A DNA stretch of 60,252 nt, from IMG/VR virus record IMGVR_UViG_3300028895_000917, positions 1 through 60,252 of that record. One strand, written 5' to 3'. The notes beneath the pieces were generated by a model that ran no database searches, was not told where the DNA came from, and was given only the letters and a program-made list of their open reading frames with translations. Positions within the stretch are counted from its first letter, which is position 1, and the number at the start of each line of letters is the position of its first letter. This document shows positions 13,801-59,989 of the stretch, one piece after another. Source of the DNA: a virus (Duplodnaviria; Caudoviricetes). The position numbers and the translations under genes were made by a program.

Positions 13801-14985
13801 AACACGGTGGTCACAGGCCGCTCTGGTTCACTGTTCTTCAAGAACGCTAGCGGAGCCGGATCCGGTGAGCTTTGGCTCAACACTTCGACGGGCGCTTCGG
13901 GCACGGCTTGGGAACAGGTCGTCACAGGCACTTCCCCGGTTACCCTGGAAGAGGCTATTGAGAACACGGGCACTTCCCCGGCGGTCCTCGGTGGTGTGTC
14001 GGGCTCGACGAGCTTTGAGGTGGAGATCCAAGACGGCTCAAACTGGATCTTCTCTGAGAGCGTCGGTGGCCTTAACCTCTTGACGGTTGAAGCCAACTCC
14101 GCAACGAACGCTTCGACGGTGGCTGCCATCGCTGACTCCATCACCCTGACGGGTCAAACCAACACGGGTGCTGCGGGCGGTACCGTAACGGTCTCTGGCG
14201 GAGGTTCGGACACCGCCCCGGGTGCGGTCACGGTCTCAGCCGGCGACCACACCGGAACAGGTGCAGGTGCAGACCTGACGCTCAACGCTGGCGATGGTGG
14301 AACCACTTCCGGCGCTGGCGGCAACGTTGTCGTGAATGCTGGTACCCCCACCGATGGTGACGGTGGTACCGTGACCCTCACTGGTTCGGCCGGTGTGGGC
14401 ACCAACCGCGACGGGGGTAACATCACCCTCGTTCCGGGAGCCAACACCGGCACTGGTGTGGCTGGTGTTGTCGGTGTCGACTCGGCGCTGGGTATCAACG
14501 AGCCGGTGTTCCGGCTCGACCGTGCCGACGGCACCTCAGGCGTGACCATCGACATGTTCAACGGTTCGGTGGATCCCGAAAACAATGTCACCGGCGACGA
14601 GGGCGACGTCTACTTCCGCGACGGTGCCGAGAACGCCATCTACATCAAGGAGACGGGAGACGCCAACAACACCGGATGGGAGCGTGTCACCACGGCGAGC
14701 TCGGCGGTCACACGCCAGTTCTACCAGACCACGATGGCGAGCACTGTGACAGGGCCTGGTGCGATCCAGAACGCCGATTTGAACGGAGGACTTCCCACCA
14801 AACCCACGTCGAATTTCAACTTCGATACCGACGCGGAAATTTACCTCAACGGTATCCTGCTTTGGAATGGTTCCAGTGGTGAAGTCGAAGACGGCACCGG
14901 TGACGAGATCAACCTCGTTGGGTCAGCTCCGACGTTTACAGCCAATGACGTAGTTACGATCATCTACTACACCAACTCCAACTAG
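10849..14985 (+). CDS. large Gly/Thr-rich fibre-like structural protein (1378 aa)
   Basis: GxIxIxxG repeats, three P...G...W knob motifs, C-terminal IYLNGILL...DVVTIIY domain shared with upstream gene. Confidence 0.75.
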   Translation: MATAAPTSLNPDEQVKNVLTYDDTLPAGSGLEVTGSAIEDNIHAILSQLNRIINSTTAGNDWFQGLVAPSALDPGTVRGVNDINDDLHSIERKRILKRLVMVGVDVTIAAAGNQFVILDAADIPSTTTAAVGAVTTTGTVVADASGSFGTAQLTEVAGANDLQPKNLCVLTDNSTGDVVTRSSDGRQIYGLLQSENATDGFTISGTTPNRVQISFVVHNSTNDDLELVAAGDMDGITFDYAYVRRDAFADCPEEAWLGDGFADTGVTAATRQAGYDNQGTGAVLTTSNATLDVGAGFSWELGDAASAALFTITEDSGGGATDLAIGADVDTYNNNAIDVNFDNGLTADNGSNAINIGVTADQIDFTGNGTLTASSASTVTVTADSASVSMTTTTSGNVVINSAGSVSSTAVGATDIDGAGAVSINSTGGAINIGNDADAQAINVGTGAAARTITVGNATGATAVNMDAGTGAFSLDSTVGGSAALMTLTTTGADGDSVEVFVSDLDPSAGAGIPAPVGSTLHRDSGGTGTTGEMWLKTGAADTAWEIIIVGTAGQETLQEAYEFGNTITTSAPEGPFDVSGTEAISLDAQTASNFTVDGANLLLSTTTSGALQLSSDANIVQSASTSWAASTVTGAATITSGLTATVQSTGDATFRSTGQGGNVVVTTANTGAGAVGDISLTGGDYTGVGSETGGGISLTGGSATSGTGSDGGELTFTAGDGFGAFSGGAVTTTAGAGGATGDGGAILITSGAGGITSGASGNVTISSGDVPVGNSDASGNISVGSATPTGTGNSGDVDITTGDSDSAAGALSITTGLGDTAGNSGDITVQAGNNVNAAGVAGGIEILAGIATTAGGAGGGLTLRGGGNVSAGGVGVTRLIGSVGLSPGADSGTVYIIGSNASAAGGDVTITSGAGATATDTGVVTIGCGGSNANIPFDSSSLVTTEAQPVVNFANNGTGAGLGAGGFINLFVSDPDDGGSASPNTVVTGRSGSLFFKNASGAGSGELWLNTSTGASGTAWEQVVTGTSPVTLEEAIENTGTSPAVLGGVSGSTSFEVEIQDGSNWIFSESVGGLNLLTVEANSATNASTVAAIADSITLTGQTNTGAAGGTVTVSGGGSDTAPGAVTVSAGDHTGTGAGADLTLNAGDGGTTSGAGGNVVVNAGTPTDGDGGTVTLTGSAGVGTNRDGGNITLVPGANTGTGVAGVVGVDSALGINEPVFRLDRADGTSGVTIDMFNGSVDPENNVTGDEGDVYFRDGAENAIYIKETGDANNTGWERVTTASSAVTRQFYQTTMASTVTGPGAIQNADLNGGLPTKPTSNFNFDTDAEIYLNGILLWNGSSGEVEDGTGDEINLVGSAPTFTANDVVTIIYYTNSN

Positions 14986-15699: not shown

Positions 15700-18600
15700 A
15701 TGGCCAACCCTCCCGCCAATCGACGCCCAGGTGTAGACGCCGACATTTTCCAAGGACAGTGGGTCCGGGGATTCGACGTTCCGGCGGGCAACGACGACCC
15801 TGCTGCCGACCCCTGCGATCTGATTGTCTCGAACGGCAAAAGTCAGATCGACCAGACGGTCTCGAACCTCATCTTCGCCAGCCGCAAAGACGACATCGGC
15901 CAACCGATCTTCGTCATGGCTCAGGGCGAGACGGCGACCGCTCCCATCGGCACCATCAACTTCCACATCGGTCGTGAGGCGGACCCCAACGGTTTGATCT
16001 CCGGTGTGGGCGGCGGCGCTCTTTACGCGAGCTACGGAACTCCGGGCTTGTGGCAGCTTCAGGCGGACAACACGACCTGGCAGAAGATCTCGGACGACCT
16101 CGGCGGGGAGGACCTCCAACAGACGCTTGCTCTGGGCAACTTCTCGGGCGGCTTCAACATCGTGATGACCAGCGGCGACAGCATCGTCGGCGCTGACAAT
16201 GCCTTGGGGAGCGACGGAGCTCCGGTTCAGTTGCAAGGTGGTGCGGCAACCGGTGCGGCGGGCAACGGTGGTCAGATCATCGCTCGAGGTGGCGACTCTG
16301 CCAACGGTGTCACTGGCAACGTCGAGGTCAGTACGCTCGCGACCACGAGTGGTGCGCAGTCGGGCACTGGTCGCGTTAACATCTTCACGGGCGATTCTCG
16401 TTTCGGAGGTAACTCGGGCGCCATCCGTATCGAGACCGGTAGTGCGGGCGACCCGGCCATCGCAGGCACTGCGGGCACTCTCCAACTCATCGGTGGCCGC
16501 AACTTCAACACTGGTGGGTTCGGCGGCGGCGGTCGCATGGACATGATCGCGGGTCAGGCGACCCAAGACGGCCAGGGCGGCTATGTCCGGATCTTCTCGG
16601 GTAACGCGACGACCACGACTCAGACCATCCCGCTTCCGTTCTTCGTCCAGGGACGTGCTGGTGACGTTCAGATCGGGGCTGGCACTTCGTCGGGCACGAA
16701 CGAGGGTGGTTTCATTCAGCTCACGGCTGGCGTCGGTGGTAGCGGTGGCGGCCCTGGCGGCAACATCCTTTTGAACGTCGGTCCTGGTGGTGGCGGTGCG
16801 GATGATGGCCAGGTCATCTCCAACGGTGTCCTGTCGTCCGACAACATCAAGCGTGGCACCCAAGATCCCAATAGCATCAACCTGGCCGGCAACGAAGGTG
16901 ACGTGTACCAGCGTACGGCTGGAGGTCTTGGCCAGGTTTGGGTCAATACCAATGGCTCGCCTACGGGGTGGCAGCAGCTCGCCTTTGCTGGGGACTTCGT
17001 CGAAGCATTCCAGCAGATGGAGATGGGCTACGTGTCTCCGTCGATGCAGGAGTTCGGCGGTCCCGATACGCAGAAGTACAGCGACATTGGTTTGTACAAG
17101 GGCCTGCGTACCGTCATCAACGGTATCGCTACGGTGACGCAAGGCCGGACGGGTACGGGTCCCGCTCTGGCGATGTTGGTCAACGAGACGATGAACAACG
17201 AGCAAGCCTCGTTGGACATGCAGACTTCTGGTTTGAGCGGTCAGGGTGTCGTTCTACGAAACCGGTTCTTTGCCACGTTCGCTTTGCAAACCGCTTCGAC
17301 GGATGAAGACTCGACACGTTTCTTTGTCGGGCTCTCGGACAACGACATCACGACCCAGCTTTCCTCGGATCTGCCTGGTGGTCGCTATTTGGGCTTCATG
17401 CGAAGCGCCATCAACGGCAACTGGGTGGTCGTTCACCGTGGCGGCGGTGGTGCGAACTTTGTCAACACCGGCGTCTCAAGAAGTACGACGGATGGCGGCG
17501 CTTCCGATGATGTCTACTATTTCGTGATCGATGCGACCGACGGGCTTCTGCCTGTGGTCAGGTTTTTCATCCTCGATCCCGATCTTCAGGTCATCGCGAA
17601 CATCACAGTTCCGAGCAACCTTCCCGGGCCCGGAGAACAGATGTGGCCCGCATTTGGCGTTCGTACCGTCAATGCCGCAGCGGGTTTCGTCAGCGCTCTT
17701 CGCGTCACCAATGCGTCGATCACAACGAAGGCCGCAACCGTTGCTCAAGGCGGAGGTACCGGAACGGGCGGTCTTTCCCTGGCCCAGGTGTTGGTCAACG
17801 GCAACGAGACGGGCCTCAACCCCATCCTCATCAACCAAGGCAGTAGCATCCTCGGTGTCACCGACGACAACGCGGGTGACGGTGCCTTCGTGTCCATCTT
17901 CGGTGGTGCGACGACGCTTGCCACCAACGATACCGGCGGCATCAACGTTGGCTCCGGTAATGCTTTCGGTGGTGGTGCTGAGAACCCTGGCTCGAGCACG
18001 GGTATCGCGGGCTTCGGTTCAGGTTTCCAACTCGGCCTGACTTCGCAAGGCAACACCGGTGTCGTGAACGTCATCAGTGGTGATCACCTCGGCACGGACG
18101 GTGACACGGGAGACATCAACCTTCGAAGCGGTGGGTTCTTCAACGGTGCCGCTGGTACACGCGAGCAGGGTGATGTGAACATCGCTCCCGGTTCGTTCAT
18201 CCCGAACCCGGCGACGGTCACAGGTGACTTGGTCCTCAAGGGCGGTAGCTCGAATCTTTCGGGTATCGTCGGTGGTGACGTGATCATCATGTCGGGCGAG
18301 AACAACTCGCCGTCCGGCAACACGGGTGACATCGTCATCGAGACCTTCGATGCGCTGACGGCTGGGGACTCCGGTGGTCTGGACCTGAGCACGGGTAGTG
18401 CGGGTGCGGTCAGTGGAGACTCGGGTAACCTGACCATCGCAACCGGTGCGGCCCCTGGGGGGAACTCAGGCTTCATCGCTCTTGTGACGGACAACGCCGG
18501 TAACGGCGCTGCGGGTCCAATGCTGCTGAGCATCGGCGGCACGACGCTCGGAGATGGCTCTGACATCTTCGTCAATGCCGGCTCCACCACCGATGCGGCG

Positions 18601-21600
18601 GGTTTTGGTGGTGACATCATCATGACGCCGGGCACGGGTGCTGCCGGCAATGGTGCGGTCGTCGTCAACGGCAAGCTCACCGTGACGGGTCTCATCGATC
18701 CGACCGGTCTCCAGCTCACTGGTCAGATCGCCACGCCGGTTGCTGTCCTTCCGGCCGGTGATGGTCTCCTGTGGGTGGACAACACGGCCGTGCCCTCGAG
18801 GCTCATTTTCCGGGATGACACGGGGACGGACAACGACATCAGCATGGGCGGCGGGGGCGGTGGGTCTCTCGGCTCGCTGAGCGACGTGAATCTCGTTGGT
18901 CCGGCGGTGGGCGAAGTGCTCACCTATAACGGGGCGCAGTGGACCAACCTGCCAGGAGCCGGTGGATCTCCATTGGCTACCATTCTCGGTCTCGGCAACG
19001 TGACCGGTGGTACGGCGGGCGGCATCACCGTGAGTGACTCGCTGGGCGACCGGATTGTCTCTGATGGAGACCTCGTACTGGATCCCTCGGTGACGCCAGG
19101 TGATGCGGTCGTCATCGATGGTTTGCGTTGGCCCGAGGCGGACGGACCAGCCGGGTTCGTGCTCACCACGAACGGTCTGGGGCAGCTCAGCTTCCAGCCT
19201 GGTGGCGGTGGGGGCGGCGGCTCGAGCTTCGCTGAAGCCTTCGCTCAGATGCAGTTCGGTGCTCTGATGCCACCGGCTGATGTGGCGGGCGTTCCGTACC
19301 TCAACGGGACGGGCATTCTCAACGATGTCAATCCGTCGGCTCCTGGTGGATCGAACATTTTCCCGCGCCTTGACGGTCTTGCGTCTCAATTTGTCGGCGT
19401 TGCTCCGAATGTGGCTCCGGGTCGGTTCGTTTCGGCCAACCCGATGACGCGGCTCGACAACCAGGGCCTGTACATCTACAAGTTTGAGATCAGCAACACG
19501 TTCGGTGTACGGCTGTTCTTGGGTCTGACCACCGATCCGAGCTCCGATGCCATGGTGACCAGCGATACGCCTCCCGGAGCTGTTGGGGGTTACGTTGGTC
19601 TGAGTTACTCGACGACGGTGCCGGATGCCGGATTTGTGTTCTGGCACAGTAGCGCAGCGGGTGCTGGTACTCGTGTCCCTACGGGCGTTGCTCCCATTGC
19701 GGGTGCCGTCTACTACTTTGCGCTCGACGCCACGGTCCCGGGTCAGGTCCGGATGACGATCTACGATCAGGACTTCGTCGCATTGTCGGCGGTTCCTCCG
19801 ATTGCAGCGTCGCTGCCTCTTCCCACAAGCATCATGGATGTGATGGGCGCCCTGATGCCGACGGGCGGGGTCAACGAGGCTCTGTTCCTCTACTCCTGCA
19901 ACGTGGTGCACCGGGCCGATCTGCTCAACGTCCTCGGTGGTGGTGGCAACCAAGACCTCGCGTCCGTCCTCGGTTTCGGCAACGAGACCGGCGGCGTGGC
20001 CATCAAGGGCTCGGACAACAACGCGGGTGCCGGTGGCGTCTTGGCGTTGCAAGGCGGCGACTCCACCGGTGGCGGTGGCGCTGGCGGCATCATCGACATC
20101 ATCACGGGTTCTCCCGACGGCGCCGGCAATGGCACGGGTGGTGACTTCCAGGTCACGACGGCTTCGGGTGCTGGTCTCGGGAACGCCGGCAGTTTCCAGC
20201 TTGTCGGGGGAACCGGCGGTCCTCTGGGCGGCGACGGGGGCACCTTCCGCGTGGATACGGGGCCTGGGCCCGGTGCTGCGTCGGGTGACGGTGGTGGAGC
20301 TGGCTTCAACCTGGGAGACGGTGGTGCCACTGGAGGCGACGGTGGGTTCTTCTCTGTCGCGGCCGGTAACGCCATCGGAGGGAACGGAGTCGGTGGCCGC
20401 ATCCAGATGTTCGGAGGCAACGGTTTCGGCACTGGAGACGGTGGTGCTTTCACCTTCACGGCTGGAGACGGCGGTGCTGGTGGTGGCGATGGCGGTTCCC
20501 TGTTCTTCACGGCAGGTACCGGCAACGGCGGTGGGGCGGACGGCACCATCACGTTCACCGGCGACACGACCATCACGGGCAAACTCAACGTCACGGGTCT
20601 CATCGACCCCACTGGACTGCTTCTCGATTCGCAGGGATCGGTGCCGTTCACCCCGGTTGGGGCTGACGGCGGTATCTGGGTCAACAACTCCGGCGAACTG
20701 ATTTTCACGAACGCTGGAGGCGACCTGAATCTGTCCACGGCCATTGGCGGTGGCGTGACGTGGCTGGATGCCATGCTCACGGCCGGCTACGGCTTCCTGG
20801 GCGCCGGCAACAACTTCGCTGGACCGCAGAGCTACGGTGTCTTCGGCAGCTCTGTGAACGGCGCTGTGAGCCCTGGACCCCCACCGGCTTCGGCGACCAT
20901 CGGTCAGGACAGCGAAGGCCCCTTCCTCAATCTGGCGGTCGCTGCGGCGCCCAACAGCGAGGCGTTCCTCGGAACGTCGGAGCTCCAGATTCAGCGGGAC
21001 TCCCGTTTCAAGGCTCGGTTCAAGTTCCAGGTCACTTCGCCGGCTCACACCGACGAGCGCATCTTCATCGGTTACACCGACGATGCGACCCAGGTGACTC
21101 CGAACCCGATGCTGGCCGTGGATACTCCGGTTCCGGGCATCCAGTACATGGGTCTCGCCCAGAGCGTGGCCGGCTTCAACCTCGAGTTCGTGGCTCATGG
21201 TTCCGGTGGCGCCATGGTCAACGTGTTCGCCATCCCGACGGACGCGCTGGTCCACTACCTCGAGATCGACGCGACGGCGACCTCGGGGGACGTGACCTTC
21301 AACCTGTACGCGGCAGATGGTGTCACCGTCGAAGCCACGCACACGGAGCCGAGCTCGTTCCTGATCCCGGACCTGGCAAACCCGCTTCGTCCCTTCTTTG
21401 GCATCCACACCGATACGGGTACGACACCGCGTTCCCTGGATATCTACCAGGCGACGGTCGTCACTCGAGCGGATGTGGTGGATGCGGTCACCGGTGGCGG
21501 TGGGGGCGGCGGAACGCCAGACCTCGAGACCGTACTGACGGCTGGGAGTACGACGGGCTCCAATAGCATCACGTTCTCGTTGGGCAGCGGAGGTCTTCTT

Positions 21601-23121
21601 TCGGATGCGGCCGTCGCCAATACGGGTGCTGCTGGCCAACCCCTGACGGTGGTGTTGGGTGCCGGTTCGACTGAGACCGGAACTGGCGTTGCCGGCGGTG
21701 CTGGTGGTGAGCTCGCGGTCACGACTGGACCTGGCGGGGCGACGGACGCTCCGCTTGCCGATGGCGGTGACGGTGGTGCTTGGAACACGACTCTCGGACC
21801 TGGTGGTGACAACACTGGCGGGTTTGATGGTGGTACTGGCGGACGGTTTGTCCTTACAACGGGAGATGGCGGCAACGCCACCGTGGGGTCTGGGGCCGGC
21901 GGTGGGGGCGGCAGCGTCCAGTTCTTCCCGGGTGCCGGTGGGGACTCAACCAACGACACTGGTGGTCGAGGTGGAGACTTCAGAATCGATCTCTCGTCCG
22001 CTACCGGTGGTGCCGGAGACATGCAGGGTGGTCGGGCTGGTCGCTTCACCATCACCGGAGGTGACGGTGGTAGCTCGGCCTCTGGAACCGGCGGTGATGG
22101 TAGCCGCATCGTCATCGTTGGTGGTCTTCCTGGCTCTGGTCCGGTTTCCAACGGTGACGGTGGTGGGATTGAGCTCCGTGCCGGTGGGTCTATTGGAACC
22201 ACAGGAGACCCGGGAGGCATCACACTCTACGCAGGTGATGCTGTTCCGGTCGTCAGCGGTGAAGGCACCGTGCAACTTGCTAGTGCCGCTGAGGCTGGTG
22301 ACGGCCTCACTCAGTCCTTCCTTCTGGTGACTCGTGCCACTTCGTCGGCTGGAGGCCCGATCACGCTTTCGGCAGGTCGAGCTCCTGTCGCCAGCGGTGG
22401 GGACGGTGGGAACATCGTCCTCAATACTCGAGAAGGAGACGGCGCCGGAGATGACGGGTCGATCCATCTGTTGGCCAATGGGGCAACGGCCCTCACAGGC
22501 ATTGGAGGAGGCAACGTCCAGTTGTGGGGTGCTCCCACGGTGGGCACCGGTACCGGCGCTCGAGTGGTCGCATCTAAGGCGATTGCAGGGCTTCCAGGGT
22601 CCGGTCAAGTTGCTGGCGGCGACGCCGAAGCTGGATCAGGCATCAACGGCGGTGCTGCGGCGGTGCAGGGTGGTGCCGGTGATGGTGTCGGTAACGGTGG
22701 AAGTGCCTTCATCAGTGGCGGTGCGGGAGGTGCTACTGGCGATGGTGGGAGCGCGCAGCTTCTGGGTGGTCCGGCGGTTGGCGTTGGCAACACTGGCGGT
22801 GATGTTCGTCTTCTCCCTGGTCCTGGTCCTGCGGGTCAGGGTGAGATCCGCATCGACGGCCCGATTCGTGATTCTAGCCGTGGTGTCCAATTCGGGACCT
22901 TCGCACCTCCGAGTGGGGGTGGTTTCATCGTGCCCTTCAACACAGTCTTCCCGAATGTGCCTCGCGTTGTGCAGTTGACCTTCGAAGCCACTGTGGCTGA
23001 TGCCGTTGGTCGTACAGTGACGGTGGCGCCAGGTTCGATCACCACTTTGAATTTTACCCTGAATGTTTCAGGAGGGGTTTTCATCGGAGCTCCGGTCGTG
23101 CACTGGGTCGCTTTCCTTTGA
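15700..23121 (+). CDS. giant Gly-rich modular tail/head fibre-like protein (2473 aa)
   Basis: GGxFxxxxG repeats, several LxxVLxxGN motifs, three paralogous beta-rich domains, C-terminal QFG...F...FP..P...HWVA (gp53/H-lectin-like) domain. Confidence 0.75.
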   Translation: MANPPANRRPGVDADIFQGQWVRGFDVPAGNDDPAADPCDLIVSNGKSQIDQTVSNLIFASRKDDIGQPIFVMAQGETATAPIGTINFHIGREADPNGLISGVGGGALYASYGTPGLWQLQADNTTWQKISDDLGGEDLQQTLALGNFSGGFNIVMTSGDSIVGADNALGSDGAPVQLQGGAATGAAGNGGQIIARGGDSANGVTGNVEVSTLATTSGAQSGTGRVNIFTGDSRFGGNSGAIRIETGSAGDPAIAGTAGTLQLIGGRNFNTGGFGGGGRMDMIAGQATQDGQGGYVRIFSGNATTTTQTIPLPFFVQGRAGDVQIGAGTSSGTNEGGFIQLTAGVGGSGGGPGGNILLNVGPGGGGADDGQVISNGVLSSDNIKRGTQDPNSINLAGNEGDVYQRTAGGLGQVWVNTNGSPTGWQQLAFAGDFVEAFQQMEMGYVSPSMQEFGGPDTQKYSDIGLYKGLRTVINGIATVTQGRTGTGPALAMLVNETMNNEQASLDMQTSGLSGQGVVLRNRFFATFALQTASTDEDSTRFFVGLSDNDITTQLSSDLPGGRYLGFMRSAINGNWVVVHRGGGGANFVNTGVSRSTTDGGASDDVYYFVIDATDGLLPVVRFFILDPDLQVIANITVPSNLPGPGEQMWPAFGVRTVNAAAGFVSALRVTNASITTKAATVAQGGGTGTGGLSLAQVLVNGNETGLNPILINQGSSILGVTDDNAGDGAFVSIFGGATTLATNDTGGINVGSGNAFGGGAENPGSSTGIAGFGSGFQLGLTSQGNTGVVNVISGDHLGTDGDTGDINLRSGGFFNGAAGTREQGDVNIAPGSFIPNPATVTGDLVLKGGSSNLSGIVGGDVIIMSGENNSPSGNTGDIVIETFDALTAGDSGGLDLSTGSAGAVSGDSGNLTIATGAAPGGNSGFIALVTDNAGNGAAGPMLLSIGGTTLGDGSDIFVNAGSTTDAAGFGGDIIMTPGTGAAGNGAVVVNGKLTVTGLIDPTGLQLTGQIATPVAVLPAGDGLLWVDNTAVPSRLIFRDDTGTDNDISMGGGGGGSLGSLSDVNLVGPAVGEVLTYNGAQWTNLPGAGGSPLATILGLGNVTGGTAGGITVSDSLGDRIVSDGDLVLDPSVTPGDAVVIDGLRWPEADGPAGFVLTTNGLGQLSFQPGGGGGGGSSFAEAFAQMQFGALMPPADVAGVPYLNGTGILNDVNPSAPGGSNIFPRLDGLASQFVGVAPNVAPGRFVSANPMTRLDNQGLYIYKFEISNTFGVRLFLGLTTDPSSDAMVTSDTPPGAVGGYVGLSYSTTVPDAGFVFWHSSAAGAGTRVPTGVAPIAGAVYYFALDATVPGQVRMTIYDQDFVALSAVPPIAASLPLPTSIMDVMGALMPTGGVNEALFLYSCNVVHRADLLNVLGGGGNQDLASVLGFGNETGGVAIKGSDNNAGAGGVLALQGGDSTGGGGAGGIIDIITGSPDGAGNGTGGDFQVTTASGAGLGNAGSFQLVGGTGGPLGGDGGTFRVDTGPGPGAASGDGGGAGFNLGDGGATGGDGGFFSVAAGNAIGGNGVGGRIQMFGGNGFGTGDGGAFTFTAGDGGAGGGDGGSLFFTAGTGNGGGADGTITFTGDTTITGKLNVTGLIDPTGLLLDSQGSVPFTPVGADGGIWVNNSGELIFTNAGGDLNLSTAIGGGVTWLDAMLTAGYGFLGAGNNFAGPQSYGVFGSSVNGAVSPGPPPASATIGQDSEGPFLNLAVAAAPNSEAFLGTSELQIQRDSRFKARFKFQVTSPAHTDERIFIGYTDDATQVTPNPMLAVDTPVPGIQYMGLAQSVAGFNLEFVAHGSGGAMVNVFAIPTDALVHYLEIDATATSGDVTFNLYAADGVTVEATHTEPSSFLIPDLANPLRPFFGIHTDTGTTPRSLDIYQATVVTRADVVDAVTGGGGGGGTPDLETVLTAGSTTGSNSITFSLGSGGLLSDAAVANTGAAGQPLTVVLGAGSTETGTGVAGGAGGELAVTTGPGGATDAPLADGGDGGAWNTTLGPGGDNTGGFDGGTGGRFVLTTGDGGNATVGSGAGGGGGSVQFFPGAGGDSTNDTGGRGGDFRIDLSSATGGAGDMQGGRAGRFTITGGDGGSSASGTGGDGSRIVIVGGLPGSGPVSNGDGGGIELRAGGSIGTTGDPGGITLYAGDAVPVVSGEGTVQLASAAEAGDGLTQSFLLVTRATSSAGGPITLSAGRAPVASGGDGGNIVLNTREGDGAGDDGSIHLLANGATALTGIGGGNVQLWGAPTVGTGTGARVVASKAIAGLPGSGQVAGGDAEAGSGINGGAAAVQGGAGDGVGNGGSAFISGGAGGATGDGGSAQLLGGPAVGVGNTGGDVRLLPGPGPAGQGEIRIDGPIRDSSRGVQFGTFAPPSGGGFIVPFNTVFPNVPRVVQLTFEATVADAVGRTVTVAPGSITTLNFTLNVSGGVFIGAPVVHWVAFL

Positions 23122-31355: not shown

Positions 31356-32711
31356 ATGAACAGTAAAAAGCAGTTTTCCGTGTTCGCTCTGATGAGCTTG
31401 GCGTTTCTGCTCTTCGTCGCCGGCATGGCCGGAGATCCCAACAGTGAGGCCGTCACAGACTCCCTGTCTGTGGCTCCTGACGACGAAGACCTGAACCGCC
31501 CGAGCTCCGAAGAGCTTGCCCCGGAACCTGAACAGGAGGAGCTGGCCGCTCCAGAGGCGACCTCCGTAGCTCCTCCGCCCAGCAACCCTTGGGTCGGCTA
31601 CCCGAACGTCTGCGAGACGTTCAAGGTCATCCAGGGTAGCAAGCGGGTGAAAGGCAAAAAGGGGCACCACTACCCTGTGAGCTACAAGCGGAACCGTTAC
31701 GTCCGCACCAGGGAAGACAAGGCCCGGACCCGCAAGCTCGTCGAGCTTGTTGCCAAGGAGATGGGCGTCGCGGAGCCGGATTTCTTTGTCGCGTTCGCGT
31801 TGCACGAAAGCACGTGGAACCCTGAAGCGATCCACATCCTCAACCCCGACCGACAAGCGAACCAGCGGGCCTGGGAGCGGCACTCCTACAACCGCACCAA
31901 GGAGCTCGAGCTCGAGACGAAGATGCAGAACACCAGTGCTCAGGACAAGAAGTACTGGCACTACAAGGCTCAGCTCGCTGACGTTCGTCTCTACAAGGGG
32001 AACACACACTGGGACGACCGTCTTCAGTACGATTTCGTCATCCCTGGCCGCACAGTCCGTGTGGACGGTGAGGAGACGGAAATCCCGACCAAGGTGATCC
32101 AGGAGTCCCGCAACGTGTGGGCACTCGGATACGGGCTCTACGGCATGTACGCCGTGGGTTACGTGCACATCTGGGATCGTGAAGCTCCTCCGTGGATCCT
32201 GTGCGCAGATGAAGGCATCATTGCCACAGTCATCCAGGTTTGGGCGGCTCGCAATGCTGTCAGTGAGTGTGACAGCCTGACCAAAAAGAACCCCGAAAAG
32301 TGGGGTCACGATGGCGGTACCTACGAGGGTGTTGTTCGTCGTTTGGGTCGTGGTCACTGTGGCGATCAGCGCCTTGGCAAAGTTTGGCAGCGGCTGATGA
32401 AGCAGTACGACGGTGTCCCCTGGGACCAGCACGCGGACTTCGGCGACAAGTGGCCACGCTACGAGATGAAGAAGCGACGCGGAGAGTGGGTGTACGAGAG
32501 GGACGCCAACGGGAACAAGATCCCGACCGATCGTGAGGCGATCCTCGCTCACATGCTCAAGCGCGCCGAAGAGGAAGGTCTTTTGCGAGACACGCCTCTT
32601 CAACGCAAGGTGCCGAACTCCAAACCTGTGGTCATCCCTGGCCACAAGCCGACAGAGCCGCAACAAAGCTCTTCGCACGTTGGTGGCGGTAACGCTGCTG
32701 CCGCTCCGTAG
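31356..32711 (+). CDS. membrane-anchored lytic transglycosylase/lysozyme-like protein
   Basis: N-terminal TM; AFALHESTWNPEA (SLT motif I-like) and GYGLYGM (motif II-like) separated by a long insert. Confidence 0.55.
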   Translation: MNSKKQFSVFALMSLAFLLFVAGMAGDPNSEAVTDSLSVAPDDEDLNRPSSEELAPEPEQEELAAPEATSVAPPPSNPWVGYPNVCETFKVIQGSKRVKGKKGHHYPVSYKRNRYVRTREDKARTRKLVELVAKEMGVAEPDFFVAFALHESTWNPEAIHILNPDRQANQRAWERHSYNRTKELELETKMQNTSAQDKKYWHYKAQLADVRLYKGNTHWDDRLQYDFVIPGRTVRVDGEETEIPTKVIQESRNVWALGYGLYGMYAVGYVHIWDREAPPWILCADEGIIATVIQVWAARNAVSECDSLTKKNPEKWGHDGGTYEGVVRRLGRGHCGDQRLGKVWQRLMKQYDGVPWDQHADFGDKWPRYEMKKRRGEWVYERDANGNKIPTDREAILAHMLKRAEEEGLLRDTPLQRKVPNSKPVVIPGHKPTEPQQSSSHVGGGNAAAAP

Positions 32712-36704: not shown

Positions 36705-36976
36705 TGAACAATCCCGATCCGAAAAAAGTCGCCAAACAGTTTCTCGCTCAACGCGGGGAATCCTGGTCTGAGTTGTTCTTCGCCCCTTACCCTCGAGGAC
36801 TCACTCGCTACCTTCCAACCGAGCTTGACGTTGTATGGTGGCGTGCGGGTGAAATGTTCGAAGGTGACATCCACAAGTTCATTCCCGAAGGCAGCGACTT
36901 GGCCTTCGAAAAAGAGTCGGGCTACCAGGTGGGGCATAATCAGCGTGTCCGCGCAGATAAGGTGTACCTGCGATGA
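36701..36976 (+). CDS. hypothetical protein
   Basis: ATGA overlaps at both ends. Confidence 0.5.
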   Translation: MMNNPDPKKVAKQFLAQRGESWSELFFAPYPRGLTRYLPTELDVVWWRAGEMFEGDIHKFIPEGSDLAFEKESGYQVGHNQRVRADKVYLR

Positions 36977-39003
36977 GTGACGCCAAGCACAGACTCAAGG
37001 TTCTCAACAAGCACTGGAGCGACTTCGTTTCTCTCGAAGAGGCGAACGCGCAGCACATGGAGAACGTGGCGCGCCTTCAGGAGATGTTCGAGAAGCGCAA
37101 AAACAAGAAGCGCCCTATCCATGTCGTCGGGATTGCGGGCTCGAACCGTAGCAAGGGCAACTGCGCCCACGAGACGAGCAGCTCCTGGCTGATGATCCGC
37201 AAGGCGATGGAGTACCTGTCGCACCAAGACAACGTCACCACGCACGCCTTCAACCTCCCCGGCATGGAGATCGAGCACTGCAACGGGTGCTACTCGAGCA
37301 CGAGCTCCCTGTGTCGCTTCCCCTGCATCGCTGCTGGAGAGAGGGTGCAAGGCCCCTCCATGTCCCGCATCGAGGATGTCAAAGCTGGGGATCAAATCTC
37401 GACGGGGATCGTGACGAAGGCGTGGCAGTCGGGAATCAAGCCTACTTTCTGGGTAACCCTATCTGACGGACGACGCCTTCGTCTAACTGATAACCACCCG
37501 GTCAAAGTCATCACGGGAAAAATCAGGAACAAAGAGACGAGCTGGAAGTGGGTGAGGACTACTGACTGGGTTCAGGTCAAAGACCTCGAAATTGGCGCCA
37601 AAATTCCGTTTGTTCTCGGTGGGGGTTTTGGAGAAGGCATCGACCAAGCGCCTCACGATTTTCTGCTCGCTGGAGCAGTTTTCGGCGACGGAACGTTCTA
37701 CGGAAAAAAGAAGGAAGAGGCGTGTATCTACTACGACGAGCGTAGTGATGGGCTTGCTGCTGCGTTGAGGAAAGAAGTCCCGTACGAAGCCGTAGACCGG
37801 AAACACCTCGTGAACGCAGAAATTTGCGAACGCCACGGTTGGCCTTCTTCGGCCTGCGATCACATGCGCAAGTTGGCGTACCCTGCTCGCATCGGGCGCC
37901 TTCTGAGACATCGTATCGGACTAAACAAGGAAGGCCCTGCATCGTCTCGACGACTCCCAGACTCTGTGATGGCGGGCTCCCGCGAACAGGTGGTCGCTTT
38001 CCTGCGTGGGTGGTTTTCGGCAGATGGTTCCGTGAACCACAAAACCGGCAACGGTGAAAAATACGCGCGGGTATCTCTCAGTAGCTCCAGTGTACAGGCG
38101 CTGCGAGATGCTCAGATGCTTCTGTCCAAACTGGGCATCCGATCCTGTGTGTACGATCTCTCTCACCATGTCGTGGAGGAAGAGAACCGTACATACACTC
38201 GATCCAGCGAACTTCAGATCACGGACGCCGAACACATCCAGACGTTTGCGGAGGTTGTGGGGTTTGCTGAGGAAACCAAAACGGCAAAACTGGATGGCCT
38301 TCCTGAGCGTCGGAGTTGTTCGCGTCCATACGGGGAAGTTGTTTCCATCGAGGCTACTGGTGTCAGTGAACCCGTGTACGATCTTACGGTCGAGGACACT
38401 CACGAATTCGTGGCTGGAGGGGTCCCAGTTCACAACTGCGACTGCTGGCCCTACGACGACATGCAGGACATCTACGCTCAGCTCACGCTGGCTGATGTCA
38501 TCCTGTTCTCGACCCCGGTGAACCAGTTCTTGCCGGGCTCGAGGCTCAAGATGGTGCTTGACCGTCTCATCTCGATGGACGGCGGCCGGTTCGCTCCGAT
38601 GTACAACGTGGACGGCCAGACCTGGAAGAACTCGGAGTCCAAGAACGCTGAGCAACGTGTCGGGATGCGTGGGGACTTCAGGTACGTCCAGAGGCTCGCA
38701 GGGAAGGTCTGTGCGGTCTTCTCGACGTGCAAGGACTACGGCTCGTACAAGGTCGCCTACGACATCCTGGCTGGCATGAACGACTACGGGTGCTTCATCC
38801 CCCCGAACTCCGTGGTCAGCTTCCACAGCCCACGTGTGCAGCGAGACACGGCCTACGACAAGCATGACTTCCTGAAGGACCTCCAGACGGGCGGTTGGAT
38901 CGGTGACGCGATCGAGAAAACCTGCGAGAGGTGCCTTGAAACGGCAAAACTCGTTCGTGACAACGAATCGCTCTGGATGGATGAGATGACAGGGCGCGCC
39001 TAG
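36973..39003 (+). CDS. flavodoxin/NADPH-dependent FMN reductase family protein containing an intein
   Basis: VVGIAGSNR, CNGC...C..P|CDCWPYDDM, ADVILFSTPV, LKMVLDRL, LAGKV. Confidence 0.85.
   Translation: MSDAKHRLKVLNKHWSDFVSLEEANAQHMENVARLQEMFEKRKNKKRPIHVVGIAGSNRSKGNCAHETSSSWLMIRKAMEYLSHQDNVTTHAFNLPGMEIEHCNGCYSSTSSLCRFPCIAAGERVQGPSMSRIEDVKAGDQISTGIVTKAWQSGIKPTFWVTLSDGRRLRLTDNHPVKVITGKIRNKETSWKWVRTTDWVQVKDLEIGAKIPFVLGGGFGEGIDQAPHDFLLAGAVFGDGTFYGKKKEEACIYYDERSDGLAAALRKEVPYEAVDRKHLVNAEICERHGWPSSACDHMRKLAYPARIGRLLRHRIGLNKEGPASSRRLPDSVMAGSREQVVAFLRGWFSADGSVNHKTGNGEKYARVSLSSSSVQALRDAQMLLSKLGIRSCVYDLSHHVVEEENRTYTRSSELQITDAEHIQTFAEVVGFAEETKTAKLDGLPERRSCSRPYGEVVSIEATGVSEPVYDLTVEDTHEFVAGGVPVHNCDCWPYDDMQDIYAQLTLADVILFSTPVNQFLPGSRLKMVLDRLISMDGGRFAPMYNVDGQTWKNSESKNAEQRVGMRGDFRYVQRLAGKVCAVFSTCKDYGSYKVAYDILAGMNDYGCFIPPNSVVSFHSPRVQRDTAYDKHDFLKDLQTGGWIGDAIEKTCERCLETAKLVRDNESLWMDEMTGRA
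37324..38436 (+). mobile_element. intein with LAGLIDADG homing endonuclease (371 aa)
   Basis: N-terminal CIAAG, LTDNHP block B, LAGAVFGDG and FLRGWFSADG, VYDLTV...VHN followed by extein Cys. Confidence 0.92.
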
Positions 39004-54971: not shown

Positions 54972-57464
54972 ATGAGCCACAAGTACCGAGTCGAGAAGAT
55001 CAGCGACAACCACTACATCCTGCCGGCCATCAAGGACATGAAGTGCCGCGTGGATGCGTTCTTGTCGACCGAGCTCTACGAGCAGACCGACGAGGCGCTG
55101 TGGCAGCAGGCCGTGGACTCAGCATCGTACGATGGGGCGATCGGCATGTACCTCATGCCCGACACGCACCTCGGCTACAGTATCCCCGTGGGCGGCGTCC
55201 TCGTGACCGAGGGCACCATCGTGCAGTCGGGCTCAGGCTACGACATCTCGTGCTTCACCAAGGACACCAAAGTGTCCTTGGTTGACGGCCGTGAGCTTTC
55301 GTTCTCTGAACTCGTCGAACAGTACGGGGACGGTGGTGAATTCTACGTGTACTCGATGACTCCGGAAGGCCGCGTTACGGCGGGCAAAGCTCACAGCCCC
55401 CGGAAAACCAGGGAAAACGTTCTTTTGGTCGAGGTGCTCCTTGACAACGGAGAGGCGATCCGGTGCACCCCGGACCACCAATTCATGCTGCGAGACGGAA
55501 GCTACCGAGAAGCGCAGGACCTGCGTCCCGAGGACTCCCTCATGCCGCTCTACCGGACCTACTCGAAGGGCTACTGCGATGTGCAGCATCCCGTGGATAA
55601 CTCACAGGAACGGATGTACCGTGTCGCTTTTCGCGAACTTCACGGATATGTCCCGGAGTGGCCGAGGGTTGTACACCACGACCTTTTCGCCGAGGACAAC
55701 CCGAACCCGGACAAGACCAACGATGATCCGCGCTTCCTCGTTGAGATGGACCAGAATGACCACTGGCGCCTCCACTCTGAAACGGCGCGGACACGTCTCG
55801 ACCGTGGAGAAATCTGGGGAGCCAAGGCTCACAAGCTCTATCCTGAGATGTACTCAAAAATGGGGTCAGAGAACATGCGTCGCCTCCATGCTGATCCTGA
55901 ATTTTGCAAACGACGGGACGCACGGATGAGCGAAACAAACCGCCGGGTCCGGGCCCGAGGAGGCTACGCTGAGAACGACGCCAAAGCGGGAGAGCGCGGG
56001 CGGCAACACTTGATTGCTTACAACCAGAGCGAAAAAGGACGTAAGCAATCTCGTGAGAACGGTTTACGCAATCGAGGCCGTGTGCACACCGAGACCACAC
56101 GCCAGAAACTCCGTGAGGCTCACGCTAAGGCTCGGCAGGAAATTCTGGAGTGCCCGCACTGCGGGCGTCCCTGCCAGGGAAAAGGAGGTCTCAGTCGTCA
56201 CATCCACTACAAACACAACAACCACAAGGTGGTGTCGGTCACCCCTCTCCCAGAGAAGGATGACGTCTACTGCCTGACCGTGGACAAGTACCACAACTTT
56301 GCCTTGTCGGCCGGGGTGTTCGTCCACAACTGCGGAGTTGTGTATTTGAAAGTGCCCAACATCACGGCGGCCGACGTGGCCGACTGGGACAAGCGCAAGG
56401 CGTGGGTCGATGAGGTGGAGAAGCGTGTGGCGACGGGCCTCGGCAACGATCGTCCGGCGCTGGCCAAGCGCATCAAGTACAAGCAGGTCGATGAGGTGCT
56501 CCGGTACGGCGCCAAGGCGCTGGGAGTGTCGGCCGACTTGTGCGAGCGCCAGTACATCGAGATTCCCGAGGACCTCGATCTGACGAAGATCGAGCGGGCG
56601 CACAAGAAGTGCGTCCACCAGCTCGGGTCGGTGGGTGGTGGCAACCACTTCATCGAGATGCAGGTGGACAAGGACGATGGCTCCGTGTGGGTCATGGTCC
56701 ACTGCGGATCTCGAGGCTACGGTTGGCAGACCGCGAACCACTTCTTCCACGAGGGAGCCAAGCTTCGTGGTCTGCCGAAGAACCGGCGCGAGCAGTCGCA
56801 CCTGTACGCCGACGAGCCCCTGGGCAAGGAGTACTGGGCCTACCACAACAGCGCGGCCAACTTCGCCGTGGCCAACCGGCACACCATCGTCGAGGGCGTG
56901 CAGGAGGCTTTGCGTGAGGTCTTCCAGGTCGAGGGCGAGGTCTTCTACGAGATCTCCCACAACCTCGTGCAGGAGGAGACTTTGGTCCTTCCTGACGGGA
57001 CGACCAAGCGGGGCTTCGTGCACCGCAAGGGCGCGACTCGAGCGTTCCCTGGGGGTCACCCCGACCTCAAGGGGACGAAGTGGGAGAAGTCAGGGCACCC
57101 CTGTTGCATCCCCGGCTCGATGATCTCCGGCGCGGCGATCGTCTACCCCAAGGATGGGGCGTTCAACTCGGGCTGCTCCGTGAACCACGGTAGCGGTCGT
57201 GTGATGGGGCGTGGTCAGGCGAAGCGAGAGCTTCACGAGTACCACGACGACATCGACGAGGAGATGCGCACCATCGAGCGGACCTTCGGGCCTGATGAGG
57301 TGACGATCACCGGAATTGTCGGCAACACCGACCGTACTCCGCTCGATGAGTGTGGGCACGTGTACAAGGACCTCGACGCGGTCCTCAAGGTCCTCGAGGA
57401 CGAGGGCATCGCCGAGGTGGCGCACCGCCTATGGCCCGTTGCAAATATCAAAGGAACAGACTAG
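54972..57464 (+). CDS. rtcB: RtcB RNA ligase containing an intein
   Basis: MPDTHLGYSIPVG, GYDIS|CG, GSVGGGNHFIE, HCGSRG, HN, HRKGAT, PGSM, HGSGR, DE...YKD, IKG. Confidence 0.95.
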   Translation: MSHKYRVEKISDNHYILPAIKDMKCRVDAFLSTELYEQTDEALWQQAVDSASYDGAIGMYLMPDTHLGYSIPVGGVLVTEGTIVQSGSGYDISCFTKDTKVSLVDGRELSFSELVEQYGDGGEFYVYSMTPEGRVTAGKAHSPRKTRENVLLVEVLLDNGEAIRCTPDHQFMLRDGSYREAQDLRPEDSLMPLYRTYSKGYCDVQHPVDNSQERMYRVAFRELHGYVPEWPRVVHHDLFAEDNPNPDKTNDDPRFLVEMDQNDHWRLHSETARTRLDRGEIWGAKAHKLYPEMYSKMGSENMRRLHADPEFCKRRDARMSETNRRVRARGGYAENDAKAGERGRQHLIAYNQSEKGRKQSRENGLRNRGRVHTETTRQKLREAHAKARQEILECPHCGRPCQGKGGLSRHIHYKHNNHKVVSVTPLPEKDDVYCLTVDKYHNFALSAGVFVHNCGVVYLKVPNITAADVADWDKRKAWVDEVEKRVATGLGNDRPALAKRIKYKQVDEVLRYGAKALGVSADLCERQYIEIPEDLDLTKIERAHKKCVHQLGSVGGGNHFIEMQVDKDDGSVWVMVHCGSRGYGWQTANHFFHEGAKLRGLPKNRREQSHLYADEPLGKEYWAYHNSAANFAVANRHTIVEGVQEALREVFQVEGEVFYEISHNLVQEETLVLPDGTTKRGFVHRKGATRAFPGGHPDLKGTKWEKSGHPCCIPGSMISGAAIVYPKDGAFNSGCSVNHGSGRVMGRGQAKRELHEYHDDIDEEMRTIERTFGPDEVTITGIVGNTDRTPLDECGHVYKDLDAVLKVLEDEGIAEVAHRLWPVANIKGTD
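55251..56330 (+). mobile_element. intein with HNH-like endonuclease, NUMOD-like segment and C2H2 finger (360 aa)
   Basis: CFTKDT start, CTPDH block B, VYCLTV...HNFAL...VHN then extein Cys; VVHH...DKTND...H..LH; CPHC...H...H. Confidence 0.92.
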
Positions 57465-58061: not shown

Positions 58062-58412
58062 ATGAGGGTTCTGATCGTAGAAGACGAGGAGCACCTTCGG
58101 GAGGGGCTTCGGGCACTCATCGAAAAGATGGGGCACCAAGTCACCGTCGCCTCGGATGGGGAAGAAGGCTTAGCCGCCGTACAGGCGGTGGCCTTCGACC
58201 TCATCGTTTCAGACTTCAACATGCCGAGGAAGACCGGGCTCGAGCTCCACGCCGCCCTGGACTCTCGGATGCAGGAGCGCTTCATGCTCTACACGGCGGA
58301 CCTGGATGCCCTTCGTGATGCTCCTGCGGGCGTTCACAGGCTTCCCAAGTGGTCCTCGGTGTCTGAGCTCCGGGCCACGCTCCAAACGCTCCTGGAGGGC
58401 TGTGATGGCTGA
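58062..58412 (+). CDS. single-domain response regulator (CheY-like receiver)
   Basis: VLIVEDE, DLIVSDFNMP..TG, YTA, late K. Confidence 0.88.
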   Translation: MRVLIVEDEEHLREGLRALIEKMGHQVTVASDGEEGLAAVQAVAFDLIVSDFNMPRKTGLELHAALDSRMQERFMLYTADLDALRDAPAGVHRLPKWSSVSELRATLQTLLEGCDG

Positions 58413-58534: not shown

Positions 58535-58750
58535 ATGAAGGAAGTGATGTCGGCGAAACCCAAGGCACGCCATGTTCAGAAGTCCGCTCGTGAGCAAGGG
58601 CTCCAGGACAGCTACATGACGATCCGCCACCTCGTGCTCCAACACTGGGAAGAGATCAACGAGTACAAGCACACGCATGAAGACGTGACGTGGGGCGAGG
58701 CTGCGGACGCGATCATCCTCCCGCTTCTGCGGAAGAAGGACGATACGTGA
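58535..58750 (+). CDS. hypothetical protein
   Basis: Short ORF; start uncertain. Confidence 0.5.
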   Translation: MKEVMSAKPKARHVQKSAREQGLQDSYMTIRHLVLQHWEEINEYKHTHEDVTWGEAADAIILPLLRKKDDT

Positions 58751-59280
58751 CCTCCCTTCCTCGCAATTACATCCGGTTGCCGGACGGGACGATCGAGCCC
58801 TGCGATGACGAACGTCGCTTCATCCAGTGGTACAACGAAGTCAAGAACCGTCGGATTCTCCGGACGGCGGTGCCTTACGGCGACTTCAAGAAAGCCGTGA
58901 TTGTCGAGACGCGGTTTACGGGCCATGGCTCCATGGTTTCGGACGAGCCCGACTTCTTCGAGACTTTTGCTAAGTTCCCACACAAGAAGAGCACTCTGTC
59001 CAAACTGGACGCCACAGAAGCTCAAGCTCGAGAGACTCATCGGTGGATGGTGGCGGAAGTCGAAGAGGAGCTCGCCAAGAACCCCGCATATCGAGAGTTC
59101 TCTAAGGGCCTCGAGGAAGTGCTGACGAACCCTGGTGCGATGCCGGTACCCCGGCCTCGCCAAGCCGCTGCTCCGCACCTCCAGGCGCCCAAGGCGGACT
59201 GTCCGAAGTGTCACGGCAGCGGGAAGATTCACGGGGTCTTCGAGACGCTTCCTTGCGACTGCACCATCGTCACAACCTGA
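58747..59280 (+). CDS. protein with C-terminal Zn finger
   Basis: CPKCHGSG...CDC; GTGA overlap. Confidence 0.6.
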   Translation: MTSLPRNYIRLPDGTIEPCDDERRFIQWYNEVKNRRILRTAVPYGDFKKAVIVETRFTGHGSMVSDEPDFFETFAKFPHKKSTLSKLDATEAQARETHRWMVAEVEEELAKNPAYREFSKGLEEVLTNPGAMPVPRPRQAAAPHLQAPKADCPKCHGSGKIHGVFETLPCDCTIVTT

Positions 59281-59317: not shown

Positions 59318-59989
59318 ATGAGCCTTGTCACCGAAGACGGCCAACAGACCCCCGACCTCAACGTCGATCTGGTGCGCCTTAGTCCCCGTGGGGAACCACT
59401 GTCACCATTTTTGGTGATGCTGTTCTATTCCAAGGGCGTCTTCTCGTGGTTGCACAAGAGAGGACGCCGCATGTGGTGGTCGCCTGAGCCCCGTTCGGTC
59501 CTCATCTTGTCCGAGCTCAAGGTCAGTCGTTCCCTCCGCAAAAAGCTCCGTAGTGGTCGTTTCCACGTCACTGCGGACACGCGCTTTGAAGAGGTCATGC
59601 GCCTGTGCAGGCTGACGCGGAAGGAGTCGTGGATCACCGACGAGCACATCGAAGTGTTCAGTAGGCTCCACGCTCTAGGCCATGCTCACAGCGTGGAGGT
59701 GTGGGAGGGGGATCAGTTGGTGGGGGGTCTGTACGGCGTCTGTATCGGCGAACTGTTCTGCGGATGTTCGATGTTCCACACAGCCCCAGACGCCTCCAAG
59801 ATCGCGCTGGTGAAGCTCGTGGAGCTCCTGGCGAGTTGGCGAATTCCGCTCCTAGACTGCCAGGTACACAACCCACACCTGCAACGCATGGGCGCTCGCG
59901 TCATCCCTCGAGACACCTTCCATCGCCTTGCCGGGCACCTTGTGCGTCAAAAGCGCAGGGTTGGAAGCTGGTCCAAGTATTTCACGTAA
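59318..59989 (+). CDS. aat: leucyl/phenylalanyl-tRNA-protein transferase homologue
   Basis: WWSPEPR, SRSL, SWIT, LH.LGHAHSVEVW, LVGGLYGV, SMF, ASK.AL, LLDCQ. Confidence 0.92.
   Translation: MSLVTEDGQQTPDLNVDLVRLSPRGEPLSPFLVMLFYSKGVFSWLHKRGRRMWWSPEPRSVLILSELKVSRSLRKKLRSGRFHVTADTRFEEVMRLCRLTRKESWITDEHIEVFSRLHALGHAHSVEVWEGDQLVGGLYGVCIGELFCGCSMFHTAPDASKIALVKLVELLASWRIPLLDCQVHNPHLQRMGARVIPRDTFHRLAGHLVRQKRRVGSWSKYFT

Follow-up and report, generated by a model that had tools for sequence, protein, structure and literature searches.

A phage-encoded Aat-family aminoacyl-tRNA–protein transferase with cysteine in place of Glu156

The IMG/VR virus record IMGVR_UViG_3300028895_000917, a linear sequence of 60,252 b that was analyzed over its whole length and is referred to in the following as the window, encodes a homologue of Aat, the bacterial leucyl/phenylalanyl-tRNA–protein transferase. 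In this protein, the glutamate found at position 156 of E. coli Aat is a cysteine. The same substitution runs through a clade of related metagenomic proteins that is under purifying selection and that retains the catalytic and donor-side residues of the family. From the pattern of altered and conserved residues, the enzyme is best seen as one in which the acceptor site has been rewritten, with the chemistry and the donor site unchanged.

Sequence and predicted structure of the transferase

The gene and the residues of interest have the following positions in the window:

59318..59989, + strand: Aat-family aminoacyl-tRNA–protein transferase gene, Cys156 type, 223 amino acids (aa), ATG start (open reading frame (ORF), PF03588, TIGR00667 and fold)
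59375..59398, + strand: residues 20–27, RLSPRGEP, replacing GLLAxGGD (G25R, G31E, D32P; gap-free alignment)
59435..59449, + strand: residues 40–44, GVFSW, compared with GIFPW; Trp44 (W49) kept, Pro48 changed to Ser (HMMER alignment)
59654..59659, + strand: Val113-Phe114 (V113 at 59654, F114 at 59657), aligned with E. coli Ala119-Tyr120
59765..59767, + strand: Cys150, codon TGT, aligned with E. coli Glu156 (GESMF changed to GCSMF)
59855..59863, + strand: Asp180-Cys181-Gln182, aligned with E. coli D186-C187-Q188

The window protein matched the Pfam family PF03588 (Leu_Phe_trans) with an E-value of 4.2e-64 and a score of 215.6 bits (cut-off 22.7), the match spanning residues 34–197 and profile positions 5–171 of 171. 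For the NCBIfam equivalog TIGR00667 (aat), the score was 192.4 bits (cut-off 143.55). Besides PF03588, the Pfam scan gave only a sub-threshold match to Acetyltransf_6. The E. coli Aat chains 2z3k, 2dps and 2cxa matched with E-values of about 1e-43. An AlphaFold (AF2) model built from a 33-sequence alignment had a predicted local distance difference test (pLDDT) score of 93.2 and a predicted template modelling (pTM) score of 0.89. In this model, the protein is predicted to have a two-domain fold with a C-terminal domain resembling Gcn5-related N-acetyltransferases (GNAT-like), as in E. coli Aat. When the model was compared with solved structures by Foldseek, ranks 1–9 were all E. coli Aat, with template modelling (TM) scores of 0.80–0.84 and root-mean-square deviations of 1.8–2.5 Å; the superposed structures included 2cxa, 2dpt, 2z3k and peptide complexes. 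The protein is a genuine Aat homologue, as had been claimed in an original prediction made from the sequence alone, and the family and E. coli Aat matches are far past chance.

Positions are given in E. coli numbering, which was obtained as the 2z3k_A chain index plus one from the HMMER alignment to the window protein. In this alignment, Cys150 pairs with E156, so that the CGESMF motif reads CGCSMF, and the acidic anchor that characterizes Aat at Glu156 is missing from the window protein. The EAYxRLH motif (EAYHRLH in E. coli) reads EVFSRLH. Both changes had been pointed out in the original prediction and were found at the codons given there. The DCQ triplet, as stated there, is intact, with D180, C181 and Q182 opposite D186, C187 and Q188. 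The GLLAxGG segment near the N-terminus, which had been described as absent, turned out to be rewritten: a segment of the same length, RLSPRGE, aligns with it without a gap and is conserved across the clade described below.

The published role of position 156 points to the acceptor side of the enzyme. In the account of Aat given in a GNAT review (PMC4964394, citing Suto 2006), the side chains on residues E156 and Q188 hold an N-terminal Arg or Lys by its positive side chain and are believed to set which acceptors are used. The same account has W49 stacking on the terminal adenine (A76) of the tRNA, and M144, F153, L170, F173 and I185 forming the pocket for Leu or Phe. Q188 and D186 act as a proton relay in a mechanism proposed later, as outlined in a preprint (bioRxiv 2022.07.20.500667). 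On the donor side, window residues W44, L138, F147, L164, L167 and L179 agree with the corresponding columns of ordinary Aat, and the clade as a whole agrees with ordinary Aat at W49, W111, M144 (L), F153, M158, L170, F173 (L), I185, D186 and Q188. Among the 34 clade rows, 33 have D186 and 33 have Q188. The altered sites are position 156, positions 23, 25, 31 and 32 in the N-terminal loop, position 50 beside W49, positions 119 and 120, and position 191 shortly after Q188. These sites may line a single pocket. In the clade, two acids (D32 and E156) are lost and one (E31) is gained, and A119V, Y120F and E156C make the site less polar.

Compared with E. coli Aat (also known as LFTR; EC 2.3.2.6; structures 2cxa, 2dps, 2dpt and 2z3k–2z3p), to which it is about 38–40% identical over about 200 columns, the window protein shares the two-domain fold, D186/Q188, the tryptophans at the tRNA end and the hydrophobic donor pocket. 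It differs in having Cys for Glu156, Pro for Asp32, Glu for Gly31 and Val/Phe for Ala119/Tyr120, and in being encoded by a very large phage instead of a cell.

Two apparent features of these motifs were considered and discarded. A conserved CxC motif was rejected, as the first Cys of CGCSMF varies within the clade (C, Y, F, S or V). An apparent absence of DCQ from certain bacterial loci was discarded as well: these loci have DAQ, DTQ or DVQ, with only C187 varying. Such variants were seen in the ordinary bacterial Aat of L003, L008, L013 and 11 other loci (Rhodanobacter, Luteibacter and others). Cys187 is dispensable, because DAQ, DTQ and DVQ occur while D186 and Q188 stay.

A clade defined by Cys156

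The window protein was used as the query in a search of 5.8 billion proteins, in which 8000 candidates were scored and the best 120 listed and aligned. Among these 120, the top 35 and one fragment (P0001–P0035 and P0051) were 53–90% identical to the query, and the full-length ones matched it over nearly its whole length. The score then fell from 250 to 210 bits, and the hits that followed were ordinary bacterial Aat proteins of about 50% identity that matched from residue 25 onward. The first ~25 residues of the window-type proteins are clade-specific. For counting residues, the clade was represented by 34 full-length rows (the window protein and P0001–P0033) and ordinary Aat by 84 rows. Three fragments were left out; two of them cover site 156, and both have Cys.

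At position 156, 33 of the 34 clade rows have Cys and one (P0007) has Ala, while Glu is found in all 84 ordinary rows. Ten columns separate the clade from ordinary Aat: P23L, G25R, G31E, D32P, Y50L, T110S, A119V, Y120F, E156C and T191N. Position 119 is Val in 33/34 clade rows and Ala in 77/84 ordinary rows; position 120 is Phe in 30/34 and Tyr in 81/84, respectively. All 33 aligned clade sequences share the glutamate gained in the N-terminal loop (Glu26, E. coli position 31), where the residue of ordinary Aat is Gly or Ala. The GVFSW motif that the original prediction had listed in place of GIFPW is present in the window protein, but it is not a general trait of the clade: Ser at position 48 occurs in 7/34 clade rows, marking a sub-clade, compared with Pro in 84/84 ordinary rows.

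Two further searches served as controls. In a scan with one genome per species, covering 185,579 species, 598 relatives were found and the best 80 inspected. All of these 80 were at most 52% identical to the window protein, and Glu156 was present in 78/78 parsed loci (two were not parsed). An exhaustive search was also made of 1.84 billion cluster representatives, from which the best 150 were examined. Position 156 was Glu in 145 of them, Asp in 3, Cys in 1 and Tyr in 1. The sole Cys belonged to the clade's own representative, and the Tyr case (P0270) was a 161-aa fragment near the clade. Position 120 was Tyr in 127, Phe in 19, Met in 2 and Leu in 2. The Y120F change, which had been presented as notable, is therefore unremarkable on its own, since the 19 representatives with Phe keep E156.

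These results show that E156C is clade-wide, extending over ~35 metagenomic proteins, and they answer the question, raised with the prediction, of whether the substitutions mark a phage clade. A quirk of one copy was rejected as an explanation, as was a cellular Aat wrongly recorded as viral: the best 80 of the 598 genome relatives included no Cys-type locus. Members of the Cys clade were not found outside the relatives of a 618,736-b virus record that is collinear with the window.

Sister group and selection

Two metagenomic loci, L085 and L086, encode proteins with phage-type N- and C-termini, yet have GESMF (Glu156), with position 32 acidic and position 120 occupied by Met. A quick, unrooted IQ-TREE tree was calculated from 91 rows, comprising the 34 Cys-type rows, L085 and L086, every second ordinary hit and 13 of the 80 genome loci, with no fragments. 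The 36 phage-type rows formed one clade with a Shimodaira–Hasegawa-like approximate likelihood ratio test (SH-aLRT) support of 100. Within it, the 34 Cys-type rows formed a clade (SH-aLRT 92) whose sister was the pair of L085 and L086 (SH-aLRT 99). Since this sister pair keeps Glu156, the change appears to have arisen within the phage lineage. The simplest reading of the tree is that E156C arose once, after the N-terminal changes had begun. The Glu156-type phage Aat proteins (L085 and L086; cluster representatives P0242 and P0243) thus resemble the window protein in their termini, in the ORF upstream of the gene, in the related genomic region and in their place in the tree, and differ from it at positions 156, 32 and 120.

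The Cys-type genes of the window and of loci L002, L083 and L084 were compared as codon alignments. Pairwise ratios of nonsynonymous to synonymous substitution rates (dN/dS) were 0.08–0.16, in comparisons where dS was near or above 1. The Cys156 clade is under purifying selection, and a pseudogene or relaxed selection was rejected on the same values. The original prediction had named a substitution unique to this copy with signs of relaxed selection as grounds for abandoning it; what we found was a clade-wide substitution in a constrained gene. Two of the four genes encode this Cys with TGT, the other two with TGC. In the sister group, the Glu codon is GAG, from which a Cys codon requires three base changes. 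A route from Glu through Asp and Tyr to Cys is possible, a Tyr variant being known among the cluster representatives.

The gene was also present on contigs of four further public DNA runs, and most of the overlapping pieces were identical; no RNA run was listed for the stretch. In two runs, there was a co-occurring strain variant with 13 differences in the last 150 bases of the gene. Six of the 13 differences were listed, and all six were synonymous third positions.

The 618-kb relative and its ClpS

The only other Cys-type locus in IMG/VR is L002, on the virus record G001 (618,736 b, CheckV completeness 92%); the corresponding CheckV value for the window is 33%. G001 has 58.3% G+C and 54 tRNA genes, which between them serve each of the 20 amino acids; five are tRNA-Leu genes and one is a tRNA-Phe gene. 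The tRNA genes are clustered, and the calls include an odd one with a two-base anticodon as well as tRNA-Asp(ATC) and tRNA-Ile(AAT). Out of 246 window ORFs of at least 80 aa in all frames, 101 had tblastn matches in G001. Gene order is collinear: window positions 885–23121 run along G001 from 18380 down to 3, and the order continues from ~617 kb down to 575,918. A 2473-aa window ORF has matches at either end of the G001 contig, so the two ends adjoin in the window. These matches are not clean, as overlapping parts of the ORF (residues 1–1378 and 120–1440) hit both ends; this could stem from a repeat inside the ORF or from the way in which the ends of the contig were assembled. Neither Pfam nor PHROGs gave a family for this giant ORF (15700–23121, + strand) or for another of 1378 aa (10849–14985, + strand). 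L083 and L084 are collinear with the same region of G001 as the window, and L086, of the Glu type, has many genes in common with that region at lower identity.

Of 30 window ORFs searched against PHROGs and Pfam, most had no family. Those that were assigned included a helicase, a metallophosphoesterase, a weakly matching virion protein, a peptidoglycan-binding domain and inteins. In a profile search, G001 had neither PF07724 (ClpA-type ATPase), which was present in 14/14 control cell genomes, nor ClpP (PF00574), which speaks against G001 being a small cell.

Some other window features were observed in passing. Its genes lie mostly on the plus strand, and it has a single tRNA gene, tRNA-Gln(CTG), at 31512–31588 on the minus strand. 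A 455-aa ORF at 1321–2688 (+ strand) has weak matches to DFP (pantothenate-metabolism flavoprotein C-terminal) and to class II aldolase, and falls in a PHROG of unknown function. An intein with a LAGLIDADG homing endonuclease, the second in the window, lies at 36973–39003 (+ strand) in a gene with a weak FMN-reductase match, of which only about 188 aa align to the G001 copy.

Since tagging by Aat leads to the N-degron adaptor ClpS in the pathway that the original prediction had invoked, the presence of a ClpS gene in G001 is of interest for the transferase:

L163:1480-1812, - strand (L163 is G001:C1:213256-216492): ClpS of G001 (PF02617)

The PF02617 match scored 102 bits against a cut-off of 23. 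The closest solved relative is C. crescentus ClpS (3dnj), with which the NDDFTPVEW and QVHQEG segments of the G001 protein align, and the NDD...TP and His motifs of the binding pocket are present. A gene for a Tpt1/KptA RNA 2'-phosphotransferase adjoins the ClpS gene. At the gatekeeper position at the pocket entrance, the G001 protein has Val, not the Met of bacterial ClpS. Among 120 listed ClpS relatives, the 24 nearest had Ile (10), Val (9), Met (4) or Gly (1) at this position, and the other 96 had Met (79), Ile (9), Val (5), Gln (2) or Arg (1). Changing the ClpS gatekeeper from Met to Ala broadens specificity to beta-branched residues. The gatekeeper is described in PMC7966870 as helping to control the selectivity of ClpS.

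ClpS was not found within the 60-kb window, which is about a tenth of such a genome. The ClpS gene of the 618-kb relative strengthens the proposed link of the products to the ClpS–ClpAP route.

Genomic neighbourhood

Genes upstream of the transferase gene are listed here:

54972..57464, + strand: RtcB RNA ligase gene with intein (PF01139, E 3e-80; PF14890, E 2.8e-20)
58062..58412, + strand: stand-alone response-regulator receiver domain (PF00072, E 3.7e-16)
58690..59280, + strand: upstream ORF whose C-terminal part has a CxxCxGxG...CxC motif; translation probably starts at codon 20 (58747)

The original prediction had placed the transferase in a host-takeover module with rtcB and the receiver gene, and the existence of such a module was not supported. 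RtcB is upstream of Aat in both genomes, at an interval of about 1.8 kb in the window and about 6 kb away in G001. The receiver gene is not syntenic: its best G001 match, with 37% identity, is at about 476 kb, ~100 kb from the Aat locus. The RtcB intein (PF14890) occupies about residues 102–453 of the window's RtcB protein, and the G001 orthologue of 495 aa has no intein match. Between RtcB and Aat in G001, there is a gene for a probable N6-adenine methyltransferase-like protein (L002:6392-6916, + strand; PF10237, E 2.6e-13), of which inspection of the ORFs revealed no counterpart in the RtcB–Aat interval of the window.

The conserved neighbour of Aat is the upstream ORF at 58690–59280, not the receiver gene. 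Its homologues lie upstream of Aat in 5/5 related loci, of both the Cys and the Glu type, and their alignment shows invariant C171, C174, G176, G178, C189 and C191. The Atlas sequence of this ORF begins at residue 20. The window copy had no Pfam match, and the L085 homologue matched the DnaJ zinc finger (PF00684) with an E-value of 0.0012, below the cut-off. Prediction of a complex between Aat and the upstream protein gave a score of 0.18 against a mark of 0.32.

Discussion

The explanation that we favour, and to which we would give about an even chance, is that the window encodes an active transferase whose acceptor preference has shifted away from Arg and Lys and whose products are fed to ClpS/ClpAP. 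Such an enzyme would take Leu or Phe from its aminoacyl-tRNA and add it to a free N-terminal amino group. With fewer acidic and more hydrophobic residues on the acceptor side, its preference would be expected to move toward an uncharged N-terminal residue. Met is an obvious candidate, being a weak acceptor for the E. coli enzyme; in a preprint that treats this enzyme, the acceptor range includes Met and Thr (bioRxiv 2021.07.26.453911). The products tagged with Leu or Phe would then be read by ClpS and degraded by host ClpAP.

Several points weigh against this explanation. The change in specificity is deduced from the role of one residue, as published by way of a review. Arg/Lys recognition could have been preserved if the invariant Glu26 (position 31) stands in for the lost charge. 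Ala in P0007 and Tyr in P0270 indicate that the site tolerates uncharged residues, and Cys itself may not matter. The proposed degradation presupposes a host that has ClpA. The co-occurrence of ClpS and Aat comes from one genome, in which the two genes are about 360 kb apart. Searches of G001 with Pfam hallmark profiles for terminase (PF03237, PF17289) and HK97 capsid (PF05065) found none of them, and the viral nature of the lineage rests on the class of the record, on weak matches to a virion protein and a lysis domain, and on the lack of cell-type Clp ATPases.

The first of the other explanations, that specificity for Arg and Lys has been kept, we consider possible but fairly unlikely. Glu156 would then be compensated, for instance by the Glu at position 31, or be less important than supposed, and the phage would be supplying extra Aat to a host with little or none. 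The invariance of Glu26 speaks for this, as do the otherwise standard active site, the Glu156 of the sister phage group and the origin of the proposed role of E156 in a docking model cited in a review. Against it, Glu156 in 145 of 150 representatives (with Asp in 3 more) and in the 84 ordinary rows and 78 genome loci argues for a strong functional role at this site. Asp32 is also lost in the Cys clade, leaving it with one acid fewer overall, and three base changes from Glu (GAG) to Cys are unlike drift at a free site.

An acceptor other than protein, with the rewired pocket holding for example a lipid, a small molecule, a precursor of the cell wall or a base of DNA, strikes us as improbable. 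Acceptors of this kind are used by other GNAT-fold transferases that depend on aminoacyl-tRNA, and a precedent is found in phage Mu Mom, a phage-encoded GNAT-fold enzyme that, as described in PMC13219725, moves Gly from Gly-tRNA to the N6 of adenine in DNA. Mom, in which R111 and S124 are essential, draws on an aminoacyl-tRNA donor, as the window protein is expected to do; it uses Gly-tRNA and modifies DNA, and it was not among the fold matches listed. FemX, ATE1, Sbb17 and A-PGS appeared as distant fold neighbours in Foldseek, and G001 has the N6-adenine methylase-like gene (PF10237) some 3 kb upstream of Aat. However, Aat is far closer in sequence and fold (TM 0.8 compared with 0.5 or less), D186/Q188 and the Leu/Phe pocket are retained, a Glu156 sister group occupies the same genomic place, and the 618-kb relative has a ClpS gene.

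An unusual mechanism is very improbable, whether as an aminoacyl-tRNA-binding decoy, a deacylase, or an enzyme with Cys150 as a nucleophile and a thioester intermediate. The residue pattern of the strand would place the thiol between the donor-pocket residues F153 and M158, and a decoy had been suggested in the original prediction; the catalytic pair kept in 33/34 rows and the low dN/dS across the protein would be needless in a mere binder, so that the decoy idea fits poorly, and the natural Ala (P0007) and Tyr (P0270) at site 156 speak against an essential nucleophile.

Returning to a transferase with shifted acceptor preference, functional parallels are Bpt and ATE1, which add Leu or Arg to N-terminal Asp or Glu. 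They resemble the window protein in chemistry, in a distant GNAT-type fold (TM about 0.4 for ATE1) and in the logic of the N-degron, and belong to another family; the window protein has no ATE_N or ATE_C domain (PF04376, PF04377). Among phages, several jumbo phages encode their own ClpS, which, in the account of Iyer et al. 2021 (PMC7824862), likely brings targets to host ClpAP. G001 likewise encodes a ClpS. Unlike in that account, the writer enzyme is here phage-encoded as well, and a term search of the main text of PMC7824862 found no mention of an Aat-type transferase. No phage Aat was found in the phage literature covered by our search, which was not exhaustive, and there is no Aat in PHROGs. 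Among 50,697 phage records, Aat matches occurred only on two contigs with one organism label. On the one of these that was inspected, filed as "Acinetobacter phage MD-2021a" (L195, H1), aat was rejected as a phage gene, as the contig looks like bacterial chromosome and carries it together with ftsK, trxB, an arginyl-tRNA–protein transferase-like gene, rimI and tufA.

A broader proposal, which we regard as unlikely on present evidence, is that a lineage of ~600-kb phages carries its own N-degron writer (the Cys156 Aat), its own reader (a ClpS with a beta-branched gatekeeper) and phage-encoded donor tRNA-Leu and tRNA-Phe, with writer and reader both changed at specificity-setting residues, and so imposes a private N-end rule during infection. 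If this were true, stable proteins of the host, of its defence systems or of rival phages, with uncharged N-termini such as Met, would be turned into ClpAP substrates.

Few natural substrates of N-degron tagging by Aat are known, and its physiological role is called unclear in the preprint that treats the E. coli enzyme (bioRxiv 2021.07.26.453911). A phage Aat with a changed acceptor residue, together with the ClpS of its relative, would be a natural experiment in re-aiming the N-degron pathway and a possible phage-encoded pair of writer and reader for it. The Glu156 and Cys156 enzymes of sister phages offer a natural pair for mapping the determinants of acceptor specificity. More generally, the finding points to degradation by N-terminal tagging as a tool that phages may use for takeover of the host or against its defences.

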